DNA from: a virus
Lineage: Duplodnaviria > Heunggongvirae > Uroviricota > Caudoviricetes
Virus record (IMG/VR): IMGVR_UViG_2681813201_000017
Strand: one strand, 5' to 3'
Length of the DNA stretch: 6,321 nt
Position numbers and translations under genes: made by a program. The notes under the pieces were generated by a model. It had not been told where the DNA came from and searched no databases. It saw only the letters and a list, made by a program, of their open reading frames with translations. Below, one piece after another: positions 1,261-6,321 of this stretch. The stretch's first letter is position 1. Each line of letters begins with the position of its first letter.

Positions 1261-1991
1261 GACAGCAGTCCTCTGGCCTTCAGCTCTGCTCCCTGCTGGT
1301 CTATTTTGTCCTGCCACACCTTGCGCTGTGCCGGTGTGCCTGCCACCTCATAATCCATGTGCGGAAGTGTTGCCGCTGACAGTCCGGTCAGCCGGAGAAC
1401 CGGCTCACCGGTGAGGCTGATTTGCATCTGTTTAATTTTCTGTTCCAGCGATGATTTCACCTGCTGCATGACAGCCTTTTCCGGTGCGACATAGCCCTGA
1501 TGGCCGGTGGTGTTGGCGAGCGGATTTTCCTGTACCAGGATGCTCAGATGCATTGCCCGGACAAGCGCCTCACAGGTTTCATTCAGGGCGTGTTCCAGCT
1601 CATGCTCTGCATACAGACTCAGAAGATGATGATGTGCCTTCCGGTAGGCGGTGGCCGTGCTGTCACACGCCCCTTTCAGGCGTTCACGTTCAAAATTCAG
1701 CACCACGGCCAGATTGTCATATTCCTGTACCAGCTCCCGGCGTGCCACGCGCTCAATGTGGCGCTGTTTCAGCTCGTCGCTCAGGACACCACCGGCTGCA
1801 CGAAAGGCCGTGCGCCAGTCGTCAGCATCGTTTCCGTCGGCCTGCGTCAGCGCATTTTTTTCCTGCTCTGCCCGTTCAATGGCCGTGACGGTCTCATCCA
1901 TCAGGCGGGCGTTCTCAAGATGAGCGACTCTGGCCTTTTCCAGTTGTGCCAGTGCGGGTTGCAGATATTCAGGGATGGTGTTGTCAGACAT
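1257..1991 (-). CDS. sid: Sid, external scaffold protein that redirects helper capsid assembly to small size, 244 aa
   Basis: Start chosen at ATG 1991 (MSDNTIPEYLQ...) with GAGGAG RBS 2001-2006 on the - strand, giving 244 aa as in P4 Sid; the ORF track extends 6 codons further upstream (2009) without an RBS. Stop overlaps delta start. Confidence 0.9.
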   Translation of the reverse strand: MSDNTIPEYLQPALAQLEKARVAHLENARLMDETVTAIERAEQEKNALTQADGNDADDWRTAFRAAGGVLSDELKQRHIERVARRELVQEYDNLAVVLNFERERLKGACDSTATAYRKAHHHLLSLYAEHELEHALNETCEALVRAMHLSILVQENPLANTTGHQGYVAPEKAVMQQVKSSLEQKIKQMQISLTGEPVLRLTGLSAATLPHMDYEVAGTPAQRKVWQDKIDQQGAELKARGLLS

Positions 1992-2025
1992 TTTCCGGCT
2001 CCTCGTCACTTCAGGTTAAGAAAAT

Positions 2026-2043
2026 TGTGACGTACACCGGACA
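2026..2043. promoter_or_regulatory. TGT-N12-ACA dyad, candidate Ogr/Delta activator site of a late promoter
   Basis: TGT at 2026-2028, 12-nt spacer, ACA at 2041-2043, centre about 2034.5. Lies 35-50 bp upstream of the sid ATG (1991) on the other strand. Orientation and assignment (sid promoter versus a divergent rightward late promoter) cannot be settled from sequence alone. Confidence 0.4.
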
Positions 2044-2063
2044 ACAACACGACGCATTGCAGA

Positions 2064-2081
2064 TGTGCCAGCCCTGACACA
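2064..2081. promoter_or_regulatory. Second TGT-N12-ACA dyad, candidate Delta/Ogr site for the sid promoter
   Basis: TGT 2064-2066, 12-nt spacer, ACA 2079-2081, centre about 2073.5. If the site is centred near -55 as in P2/P4 late promoters, the leftward transcript would start near 2019, leaving a leader of about 28 nt before the sid ATG at 1991. Confidence 0.45.
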
Positions 2082-2140
2082 GGAGACTCATCCTCAGACC
2101 GGCAAGCCAGGAAAAGGTCGCAGGAAAAACCGGCTTACTG

Positions 2141-2178
2141 TTTGTTTTTTTATATTTTACTGTTCACCTCTGTTCACC
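2141..2178 (+). repeat. AT-rich tract plus two direct TGTTCACC octamers (alpha-binding type I iteron sequence), ori-like
   Basis: tgtttgtttttttatattttac (2141-2160, AT-rich) followed by TGTTCACC at 2161-2168 and 2171-2178, a 10-bp register. The same octamer recurs in the cluster downstream of alpha. The array abuts the N-run, so further copies may be hidden. Confidence 0.5.
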
Positions 2179-2187
2179 TTAAGAAAA

Positions 2188-2262: not shown

Positions 2263-2317
2263 ACGATCCCATTATGCCGCGAGTCAATGGTAGCTCAGGC
2301 GGGGCAGCCTCCGGGCT

Positions 2318-2345
2318 GGCCGGTATTCTTCGAGGCCGGTATTCT
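2318..2345 (+). repeat. Tandem direct repeat GGCCGGTATTCT x2 (2318-2329 and 2334-2345) in the leader of the rightward operon
   Basis: Two perfect 12-nt copies 16 nt apart, separated by tcga. Position corresponds to the immunity region of P4-type elements, where short sequences pair with the CI antisense RNA; assignment is inference. Confidence 0.35.
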
Positions 2346-2358
2346 CACCCCCGTCTGG

Positions 2359-2400
2359 GCTATCGCCATCGAGCGTGAGAACTCCGGCGATAGCAGTTAT
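2359..2400 (+). promoter_or_regulatory. Hairpin (9-bp stem, 18-nt loop) followed by a U-rich stretch; candidate attenuator or terminator upstream of the first rightward ORF
   Basis: gctatcgcc (2359-2367) pairs with ggcgatagc (2386-2394); followed by cagttatttgct. It sits immediately before the AAGGAGG RBS at 2411-2417. Confidence 0.3.
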
Positions 2401-2424
2401 TTGCTACTCGAAGGAGGCTGCCTT

Positions 2425-2622
2425 ATGGCTACAACCCTTACCCCCTCACACCCTGAATTTGTCTTTGTGTTTGCGGCTGTCCGTCGCGCAGACCGTCATC
2501 CCCGTATCTGTATGCTTCGCACCGTCGCCGGTGATGAACGCAGTGCCCGCCGTTCCCTTGTCCGTGACTATGTGCTCTCCCTTGCTGCCCGTCTGCCGGT
2601 GGTGGAGGTGTCCCGTGCGTAA
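2425..2622 (+). CDS. Small 65-aa protein, first ORF of the rightward (early/left-operon-like) transcription unit; occupies the position of kil in P4
   Basis: ATG 2425 preceded by strong RBS AAGGAGG (2411-2417, 7-nt spacing); stop TAA 2620-2622 overlaps the GTG start of the next ORF. Identity with P4 Kil is inferred from position only. Confidence 0.45.
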
Positions 2623-2902
2623 TAAAAAAGCCCCTCAGACCGTCTCAGCGCGTCATGACGCCCGTGAACACCTCAGCATTGAGGCTTACCATAAGCTCAA
2701 CCGCGCCAGCGCCGTATCCCAGTTTGTTGGGGGTGATTTGATTCACCGTGAACTCTCCGGCCTGCATCAGCTCTACATTCCGCATATTTTCAGCTACCTG
2801 AATGAAGATATTGATTTTGTGCTGAATGAACTGAAAGCCAAAGGCCTGTGCCGCGATTTTCTCGCCCAGCAGAAAGACCGGGGAGACAGGACGCATGTTT
2901 GA
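2615..2902 (+). CDS. 95-aa protein at the position of P4 Epsilon (helper prophage derepression); start at GTG
   Basis: GTG 2615 preceded by GGAGG (2604-2608, 6-nt spacing). The longer ORF-track version (from 2375) has an N-terminal part that overlaps the 65-aa ORF in another frame and lacks an RBS. Stop TGA 2900-2902 overlaps the ATG of the next ORF. Size and synteny fit Epsilon; I cannot verify the sequence. Confidence 0.5.
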
Positions 2903-3350
2903 TTTTCCCCAGCCCGGTGAGATTTACCGTTCTGCCGGTTTTCCCGATGTGGCCGTGGTCGGCATTCTGGAAGACGGTATTCCGTGGGAAATGCCGTACC
3001 GCTGCCCGGAAATTGTCTGGAACCCGTACCGCCGTAAATTCAGTATCCTTGTGCGTATCCTCGCTGACGGACGCACCACAGACATCCCGCTGGGGCGTTT
3101 TCTGCGGGAATTTACCTGTGACCGTCCTGACCTGTTTAAACGCAGCCCCGTAAACCGGCATGCGGTACTGAAAGAAATGGCCGGAGACCCGGAATTACAG
3201 AAATGGCGGGAAAAATATCTGGATATTTACCCGCAGGACACTGTTCCGGTCAGCCGGGCAGCACCGGTGGCGCGGGAATGGCGGGAAATTCCCCGCACGG
3301 AGCCTGACCCGGAAACCACCCCGGATAACAGTTACCGCAATTATCTGTAA
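2895..3350 (+). CDS. 151-aa hypothetical protein (size and position of P4 orf151), function unknown
   Basis: ATG 2895 with GGAG 2882-2885 upstream; start overlaps the stop of the preceding ORF (ATGTTTGA); uninterrupted 151 codons in a compactly packed operon. Confidence 0.7.
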   Translation: MFDFPQPGEIYRSAGFPDVAVVGILEDGIPWEMPYRCPEIVWNPYRRKFSILVRILADGRTTDIPLGRFLREFTCDRPDLFKRSPVNRHAVLKEMAGDPELQKWREKYLDIYPQDTVPVSRAAPVAREWREIPRTEPDPETTPDNSYRNYL

Positions 3351-6186: not shown

Positions 6187-6204
6187 ATCCCTGAATTCCC
6201 CGAA

Positions 6205-6296
6205 GGTGAACAATCCACTGTTCACCCTTCACCGTATATTCACCCGTTATCACACTGAAATTAAAAGAGAAAAACGAAAGGTGAACAGTGTGAACA
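6205..6296. repeat. Cluster of TGTTCACC-type iterons in both orientations downstream of alpha (crr-like cis replication region)
   Basis: GGTGAACA 6205-6212 (inverted), TGTTCACC 6219-6226, degenerate cCTTCACC 6226-6233 and TaTTCACC 6237-6244, GGTGAACA 6280-6287, tGTGAACA 6289-6296. The first two form an inverted pair GGTGAACA-atccac-TGTTCACC. An A8/T6 tract follows at 6304-6320. Confidence 0.6.
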
Positions 6297-6321
6297 ATCA
6301 AATCAAAAAAAACTTTTTTCT

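Follow-up and report, generated by a model that had tools for sequence, protein, structure and literature searches.

The end of the CI RNA gene adjoins a2 and b2 target sequences upstream of kil in a P4-like satellite

The immunity leader and its relatives

We analyzed a 6,321-nt stretch of DNA from a virus of the Caudoviricetes (IMG/VR record IMGVR_UViG_2681813201_000017), hereafter the window, with a focus on positions 2359-2424. The window was 98% identical in nucleotide sequence to satellite phage P4 (blastn) and shared its gene order, with psu, delta and sid on the minus strand followed by CI, kil, epsilon, orf151, cnr and alpha. Window positions 1650-2187 correspond to the sid/ori side of P4, and positions 2270-3000 correspond to P4 8521-7790. 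The Kil protein was 100% identical to the P4 product and 40-50% identical to the Icd proteins of N15 and PY54 (tblastn). Its homologues are named "host cell division inhibitor Icd-like protein" in RefSeq, and a search of Kil against Pfam returned no match. The identities to P4 bear out the first-pass annotation, made from the sequence alone, in placing a P4-type immunity leader just upstream of kil.

Part of the leader is masked by a run of 75 N. In all 89 relatives for which both flanks were available, this run stands in place of 845-867 bp, and P4 itself has 865 bp there. The corresponding segment of the relatives contains the ori repeats, vis, the promoter PLE, the isrK/seqA leader with its a1 and b1 boxes, and the terminator t1. 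The upstream a1/b1 targets and the promoter, seen in the 89 relatives, are thus hidden in the window, and the kil ribosome binding site (RBS) looks like the first rightward RBS because the N run masks the true start of the operon. In the closest relative, L062, a1 fits its own a′ box and b1 mismatches its own b′ box, so this lineage may have an impaired upstream half of the circuit.

The features of the region, in order of position, are as follows.

2188-2262, no strand: run of 75 N
2283-2370, plus strand: CI RNA gene (C4 family), a full-length match to Rfam RF01695 (74.3 bits against a gathering score of 45, E = 1.2e-13)
2288-2304 with 2349-2365, plus strand: closing helix P1 of CI, 17 bp, enclosing hairpins 1 and 2
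2305-2318, plus strand: CI hairpin 1, inside helix P1
2319-2340, plus strand: CI hairpin 2, inside helix P1, with the b′ box as its loop
2326-2334, plus strand: b′ box (UUCUUCGAG), antisense to b2/seqC
2342-2348, plus strand: a′ box (UUCUCAC) in the single-stranded CI junction, antisense to a2
2359-2367, plus strand: segment B, the left arm of the 9-bp stem, made up of the last 7 nt of the 3′ strand of helix P1 and the CC of the conserved CCA tail (2366-2368)
2371-2384, plus strand: a2 target hairpin, GAG (2371-2373) paired with CUC (2382-2384), whose 8-nt loop CGUGAGAA bears a2 (2375-2381)
2386-2394, plus strand: segment C, the right arm, complementary to B and also the 5′ arm of spacer hairpin C:D
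2388-2410, plus strand: spacer hairpin C:D in predicted folds, with the core UAGCA (2391-2395)/UGCUA (2402-2406) and a loop that holds uuauuu (2397-2402)
2407-2415, plus strand: b2 box, the seqC of the P4 literature (CUCGAAGGA), which pairs with b′ (2326-2334) and overlaps the Shine-Dalgarno sequence
2411-2417, plus strand: Shine-Dalgarno sequence AAGGAGG of kil, read from the sequence, 7 nt before the ATG at 2425
2425-2622, plus strand: kil (65 aa), encoding an Icd-like cell-division inhibitor, from the open reading frame list and homology; translated first after CI in the early (left) operon
2426-2582, plus strand: counterpart of the P4 sequence cloned as the Rho-dependent terminator timm (X51522 8365-8209, converted with the window-to-P4 map)

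The CI segment is the same as the P4 sequence except in the loop, the fold of the CI RNA is identical to that of P4, and the P4 record carries an annotated dyad symmetry at the matching place. By analogy with the annotated 77-nt C4 RNA of phage P1, mature CI RNA would span about 2289-2368, ending near 2367-2368. Folding of this mature form predicted that the a′ box is fully exposed (P(unpaired) = 1.00). In P4, CI RNA pairs with seqA and seqC, resulting in premature termination (PMC4825925), and seqA and CI are the counterparts of IsrK and C4, respectively (PMC3632133). C4 RNAs carry a′ and b′ boxes that match a1b1 and a2b2 targets, one of which lies over an RBS (Weinberg et al., 2010, PMC2864571 supplement). 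Both CI and C4 RNAs are named among the substrates of RNase P (PMC5499578). With its CI RNA, a2 and b2 boxes and an Icd/Kil-like first gene, the element is a member of this group of C4/CI immunity modules. Its immunity system is one that is already known, a natural variant of that of P4 with another b-type specificity.

To count pairs across relatives, we used an alignment (A2) of 97 distinct sequences that runs from CI to the start codon and is the basis of all pair counts given here. Relatives were gathered by way of the Kil protein, from annotated phages (N15, PY54, a Klebsiella phage, an N15-like coliphage and P1) and with a DNA pattern for the CI core. The Kil-based scan of contigs yielded at least five loci. 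The CI-core pattern missed the loop type of the window itself (UAUUC...), and sequences of this type were added by hand; one locus with a C4 RNA that lacks the downstream module (L130) was left out. In the alignment, the three CI helices (2288-2365) were paired in 100% of cells with many compensatory changes, including changes on both sides at five pairs of helix P1 and four pairs of hairpin 1. The CCA that follows the closing helix (2366-2368) was also conserved.

Pairing of CI with a2 and with the kil ribosome binding site

The a′ box (2342-2348) and a2 (2375-2381) form seven Watson-Crick pairs out of seven, and these were paired in 100% of cells among the 97 sequences. The boxes occurred as 10 sequence types, all perfect matches. 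Six of the seven a′:a2 pairs had changed on both sides, as had, in compensatory fashion, seven of the nine b′:b2 pairs (93% of cells paired), a signal that cannot separate pairing in cis from pairing in trans because CI and its targets share one element. Matched changes were also apparent between the window and P4, where the b′/b2 sequences CUUCGAG/CUCGAAG of the window are replaced by CCUGUGAA/UUCACAGG. The stem of the a2 hairpin itself covaries, with a G-C pair of GAG:CUC replaced by A-U in 12 sequences, and the shape of this hairpin is that of the upstream a1 hairpin (the c4-a1b1 motif).

An exact complement of at least 6 nt existed for every one of the four boxes (a1, b1, a2 and b2) in 114 of 131 distinct leaders. 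Computed hybrid energies were -9.2 kcal/mol for a′:a2 and -12.9 kcal/mol for b′:b2. In the record of phage P1, a2 is annotated at the same relative place, and b2 has the same position relative to icd. RBS occlusion, which the first-pass annotation had ascribed to the 9-bp hairpin, is thus better assigned to the b′ loop of CI on b2/seqC, where the covarying pairs lie.

Three further pairings were considered and rejected. A full-length duplex of CI with the leader (-63 kcal/mol) is weaker than the two RNAs folded apart (CI alone, -48 kcal/mol; folded leader 2369-2440, about -24 kcal/mol, a value that is our estimate rather than a computed one), so only partial, kissing-type binding is expected. 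The 5′ strand of CI hairpin 1 (2303-2312) has a perfect 10-nt complement in the Shine-Dalgarno region (2413-2422), which does not behave as a selected pairing: 86.5% of cells were paired compared to 85.4% in shuffles, with no compensatory signal. RNAalifold proposed that a freed CI 5′ end (2289-2293) pairs with 2418-2422, and none of these pairs had changed on both sides.

The 9-bp stem, its alternatives and the terminator question

All three elements that had drawn attention to positions 2359-2424 are present. A perfect 9-bp inverted repeat, GCTATCGCC (2359-2367) and GGCGATAGC (2386-2394), has 18 nt between its arms and is followed in order by AG, ttattt (2397-2402), gctactcg (2403-2410) and AAGGAGG (2411-2417). 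The RBS had been described as directly following ttattt; the eight bases of gctactcg lie between them and belong to the C:D hairpin and the b2 box. The "large loop" of the stem holds as an 18-nt interval and fails as an unstructured loop, since GAG and CUC pair within it around an 8-nt loop. As a2 falls within this interval, the "large loop" is the a2 target hairpin.

By itself, the hairpin is unremarkable. The isolated fold of 2359-2424 consists of the B:C stem and the inner 3-bp stem at -23.3 kcal/mol, with a z-score of -1.6, and 14 of 200 shuffled sequences were as stable. Shuffled windows are expected to contain about one perfect 9-bp inverted repeat each (loop of at most 30 nt), and a terminator scan of 1900-2700 returned no site.

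Conservation presents a different picture. Among the 97 distinct relatives, 99% of B:C cells were paired, with compensatory changes at three of the nine pairs that trace to only a few evolutionary events. The 28 haplotypes, drawn from P4-like satellites and N15-like phages, were free of internal mismatches. Without guidance, RNAalifold returned a truncated CI helix together with the B:C stem and the a2 hairpin. The spacer hairpin is also widespread: the 3′ part of C was paired in this way in 82 of the 97 relatives (median dG -7.7, median z -2.5).

For the window sequence, B:C was absent from minimum-free-energy folds whenever the CI 5′ strand was included, and in the fold of 2263-2440 the left arm sits in the CI closing helix. 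Folding of the leader, as the first-pass annotation had proposed, returned the CI helix rather than the hairpin; a forced B:C stem came close in energy when the RNA ended near C. Nor is the hairpin an independent element: the left arm belongs to the CI/C4 RNA, and maturation of that RNA would carry it away. Since mature CI would end near 2367-2368, arms B and C would lie on different molecules once processing had occurred.

We compared folds containing the full CI helix with folds in which B:C was forced, at three RNA ends. For RNA ending at C, the median difference (B:C minus full helix) was +1.9 kcal/mol, and the window gave -52.3 kcal/mol for the full helix and -52.4 kcal/mol for B:C. Eight nucleotides past C, the median difference was +0.1 (window, -52.3 for the full helix and -55.2 for B:C), and in the complete leader it was +6.2 (window, -67.8 and -66.5 kcal/mol, respectively); differences of 1-2 kcal/mol between forms fall within the error of the folding model. 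Thus the two forms are near-isoenergetic when the RNA ends near C, and the complete leader favors the full helix with C:D.

Since B can pair with either A, its partner in the closing helix, or C, and C can pair with either B or D, the leader can toggle between A:B plus C:D and B:C. In the B:C form, a2 sits at the tip of a 12-bp interrupted stem directly ahead of the U-rich run. The arrangement was strongest in P4-like satellites, B:C was also kept in N15-like phages, and phage P1 has a similar layout. We tentatively suggest, well short of even odds, that A:B, B:C and C:D together make C4-type immunity leaders a conserved RNA switch with two states. If so, B would either complete an RNase P-type substrate or form an a2-displaying stem able to pause or stop RNA polymerase, coupling maturation of the repressor to presentation of its target on one transcript. 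In several C4 RNAs, a terminator hairpin is predicted whose 5′ half shares sequence with the 3′ half of helix P1, and it may be cis-regulatory or constitutive (Weinberg et al., PMC2864571). This one-sentence remark from 2010 (PMC2864571) was the only mention of such a switch in the literature searched, and no experimental dissection of it was found there. The conserved, near-isoenergetic alternative pairing, a candidate switch, is the sole aspect of the region that is less explored.

The first-pass annotation had read the hairpin and U-rich tract as a candidate terminator. A canonical intrinsic terminator at B:C is not supported: the scan returned no site, the d-score is negative and the U tract is not conserved. 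In place of a compact hairpin with a loop of 3-8 nt, B:C has an 18-nt loop or, counting the inner pairs, an interrupted stem. The tail AGUUAUUU contains 5 U in 8 nt from +2 and scores 1.1, giving d = -50.8. The d'Aubenton-Carafa d-score was negative in 97 of 97 sequences (-73 to -5), compared to +23.3 for t1 of P4. In the relatives, the number of U among the nine bases that follow the stem ranges from 0 to 5 (median 2), AAUAACCGC and GUAACCUGC are common tails, and most sequences lack the U run. The run is in the loop of the C:D hairpin and changes along with that hairpin. The left arm was held in the 17-bp CI helix in every minimum-free-energy snapshot, and forced B:C was isoenergetic with it for RNA ends at 2394-2402. 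A leaky or conditional (CI-dependent) terminator may nevertheless exist at B:C and the U run. For annotation, a hairpin and U run next to a C4-family RNA are not enough to call a terminator: one arm is part of the RNA gene itself, which also targets the loop and the RBS.

P4 8365-8209 is the fragment cloned as the Rho-dependent terminator timm (PMC3177188). In window coordinates it covers 2426-2582, inside kil and downstream of the hairpin, so the B:C site is not timm. The first-pass expectation of termination upstream of kil is therefore not matched by timm, the only terminator with published coordinates in the literature searched. Briani and co-workers reportedly described in 2000 a further P4 terminator, t4, that lies between cI and timm, is Rho-independent without a typical structure and is the main stop in lysogens. 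Given timm at 2426-2582, the interval 2369-2425 would presumably suit t4. Coordinates for t4 did not turn up in the literature searched. Should the 3′ end of t4 coincide with the U run (P4 8394-8389), the B:C site is t4.

Readings of the leader and related systems

We favor, with a probability of roughly 80%, the reading that positions 2359-2424 are the junction of the CI RNA gene 3′ end with the downstream a2/b2 target and work as an antisense switch, with no stand-alone terminator. The leader would be transcribed through CI, and CI would be cut out, its helix and CCA tail resembling an RNase P substrate as is known for the family. Mature CI would then act in trans on new leaders, where a′ would pair with a2 and the b′ loop with b2/seqC. 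Since b2 overlaps the kil Shine-Dalgarno sequence, we propose that CI bound there would prevent ribosomes from loading on kil. The untranslated transcript would end early, with Rho-dependent release at timm inside kil as one such stop, and as a result of this early termination the replication genes would stay off. Trans action, processing and termination are taken from the literature on P4 and would apply to this element by virtue of its 98% identity. B:C would be a conserved alternative pairing of the end of the CI closing helix with a downstream complement. With lower confidence, we suggest that it may contribute a leaky or CI-assisted pause or stop at 2397-2402, or else gate CI maturation. 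The region would then decide whether a P4-type satellite stays quiet in its host, with one small leader-derived RNA shutting off its own leader. The earlier proposal that entry into the early operon is controlled here survives as RNA pairing over the RBS together with premature termination, and not as control by the hairpin itself.

A role for the hairpin is still conceivable. It is possible, at odds clearly below even, that B:C (2359-2394) with uuauuu ends PLE transcripts ahead of kil as a Rho-independent terminator or attenuator, perhaps aided by CI binding to a2 in the loop; such a stop would match the atypical t4 of P4 and is compatible with the antisense switch. The reported description of t4, between cI and timm, Rho-independent and atypical, fits this proposal. 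The base of the stem is 2 nt ahead of the stretch with 5 U in 8 nt, B:C is conserved and covarying, and its stability equals that of the CI helix base when RNA polymerase would sit on the U run. In P4, a1/b1 is followed by the canonical terminator t1, so a precedent exists for an a-box beside a terminator, and the remark of Weinberg et al. on a P1 3′ half that overlaps predicted terminator hairpins (PMC2864571) points the same way. Against this stand the empty scan, the 18-nt loop, the d-score (-51 in the window, negative in 97/97) and the unconserved U run, as well as the location of that run within the C:D loop and of the left arm within the 17-bp helix in minimum-free-energy snapshots. Moreover, a stop at 2402 cannot explain dependence on seqC, because b2/seqC would not yet be transcribed. 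A somewhat more doubtful alternative is that B:C does not terminate transcription but acts as a maturation or cis-regulatory switch. B:C would displace the bottom 7 bp of the CI helix and bury CCA, allowing unprocessed read-through transcripts to escape RNase P, and could spare a transcript from repression by the CI copy that it carries; after transcription of D, C:D would form and free B, and CI would fold and be processed. The A:B, B:C, C:D arrangement is conserved in P4-like elements, and the balance moves from about 0 towards full helix P1 (median 6 kcal/mol) once the leader is complete. N15-like phages keep B:C with C:D weak or absent, and phage P1 is similar, its B:C arm matching at 8/9 positions. 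The conserved CCA after the helix and the listing of CI/C4 among RNase P substrates (PMC5499578) are also consistent with this possibility. The support is structural modeling, however: the preference of the window for the full helix at full length is just 1.3 kcal/mol, and the near-zero folding differences lie within model error.

Occlusion of the RBS in cis, by CUCC (2382-2385) pairing with GGAG (2413-2416) around C:D without CI RNA, appears improbable. This pairing is present in the minimum-free-energy folds of 2263-2440 and 2369-2424, and the mean P(unpaired) of the Shine-Dalgarno sequence was 0.40 in the processed leader. However, the fold of 2369-2424 is ordinary (z = -1.4), CUCC:GGAG lacks compensatory changes, and both partners are conserved for other reasons, with CUC covarying with GAG 2371-2373 instead. 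That the inverted repeat is a functionless chance feature is strongly disfavored and, to our minds, hardly credible. The chance rate of about one such repeat per window and the isolated fold (z = -1.6) would allow it; the absence of internal mismatches in 28 haplotypes, the compensatory changes, the 8/9 counterpart in phage P1 and the choice of B:C by RNAalifold speak against it.

The antisense switch finds counterparts in several known systems. Like the window, the c4 system of P1/P7 (C4 RNA with a′/b′, targets a1,b1/a2,b2 and the icd-ant operon) belongs to Rfam family RF01695, has a2 just after the RNA and b2 over the RBS of an Icd-like first gene, and shares the layout of the a2 hairpin, the B:C complement and a C:D-like hairpin. 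It differs in that the RNA controls an antirepressor (ant), whereas the target here would be the replication operon of a satellite. BLAST does not align the sequences, which have diverged too far, and the B:C arm of phage P1 has one A-C mismatch. The N15-like linear plasmid prophages (N15, PY54, phiKO2 and Klebsiella phages), with their CA RNA/icd-ant secondary immunity, are closer in sequence (blastn 76-83% over window 2287-2395, from CI through the C arm). They have isrK, C4 and an Icd-like gene in the same order and keep a′:a2 and B:C. Unlike the window, they have a weak or absent C:D, no U run after the C arm, and antirepressor genes downstream.

The U-rich stretch within 2 nt of the stem is shared with canonical Rho-independent terminators such as t1 of P4 (GACGCG-cca-CGCGUC followed by U7). 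B:C departs from t1 in its 18-nt loop or interrupted stem, in a U run that is broken, weak and not conserved, and in an arm shared with a 17-bp helix. Segments A-D also resemble trp-type leader attenuators (1:2/2:3/3:4) in having alternative pairings, with all three helices conserved. In contrast to those attenuators, the leader has no leader peptide, no helix is a canonical terminator, and the trigger would be antisense RNA or processing rather than ribosome position.

The closest system is the P4 immunity region (the PLE leader with seqA, cI/CI RNA with seqB, seqC and kil, and the terminators t1, t4 and timm). The CI 3′ end, a2 hairpin, C arm and U run are identical between P4 and the window except for a 1-nt insertion, and the two share their a boxes. 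In its b′ loop and b2/seqC, the window is of another specificity type, so cross-immunity with P4 may be partial. Cataloguing specificities gave 10 a-types and 21 b-loop types among the 97 leaders, which predicts the mutual immunity of satellites.

Specificity boxes of the immunity RNA

CI RNA, the P4-type immunity RNA, carries boxes a′ and b′, which are antisense to targets upstream (a1, b1) and downstream (a2, b2) of it. The a boxes are common to the window element and P4. The b boxes differ between the two elements (window 2326-2334 and 2407-2415; P4, locus L001, 1460-1468 and 1541-1549), each pair being internally matched. As shared a boxes are combined with different, matched b boxes, we predict altered or partial cross-immunity between the window element and P4.

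Ten a-types and 21 b-loop 9-mers occur among the 97 leaders, drawn from loci L001-L213, that we aligned from CI to the start codon (alignment A2). In the same alignment, 22 combinations of an a-type with a type of the B arm, the 3′ end of the CI closing helix, are represented. Judged by these sequences, the specificity boxes are modular, and the 22 combinations suggest that recombination within the immunity cassette of ~150 nt is frequent.

The closest relative of the window (L062), 99.7% identical to it on both flanks, appears to carry a recombinant immunity region, the upstream target of which is half disabled. Its a1, a2, and b2 all match its own CI boxes. When 1174-1251 was compared with 1359-1446, its b1 proved to be of the P4 type (UUCACAGG) and mismatched to its own b′ loop, CUUCGAG. 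Of 131 leaders, 13 have no b1 match that reaches 6 nt. In another locus (L130, 8890-9037), we also observed a C4-family RNA that shows no relationship to the a2/C arm/b2 module on its 3′ side or downstream of it, and that is perhaps a broken copy or one put to another use.

Pairing of CI with its own leader

The entire leader downstream of CI (2369-2440) repeats CI (2289-2354) imperfectly in inverted orientation, with a duplex energy of -63 kcal/mol. For an RNA ending at 2424, the predicted fold flips so that CI pairs in cis with its own a2 and b2, making self-repression in cis thermodynamically possible. In addition, CI hairpin 1 has in its 5′ strand (2303-2312) a perfect 10-nt complement of the Shine-Dalgarno-to-spacer sequence (2413-2422; hybrid, -25 kcal/mol). 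This pairing shows no covariation across relatives, and the complementarity may be extra pairing in this lineage or a coincidence.

Surroundings of the cassette

Upstream of CI, P4 and 89 relatives carry 845-867 bp, containing the ori repeats, vis, the early-operon promoter PLE, the isrK/seqA leader, and terminator t1, where the window has a run of 75 Ns (2188-2262). Colinearity between the window and the real element is therefore lost there, and distances measured across the run are meaningless.

Repeats of the TGTTCACC type lie on both sides of the early operon. Those at 2161-2180 match the annotated type 1 repeats of the P4 ori; those after alpha (6195-6300) resemble the second cis replication region. 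The 65-aa Kil/Icd-like protein (2425-2619) gave no hit in Pfam at E ≤ 0.01, although its homologues carry Icd-like names in RefSeq. Just past the end of psu (47-85), a perfect 11-bp hairpin (AAAGCCATGCA ... TGCATGGCTTT) followed by TTTTT looks like a strong terminator, possibly two-way.
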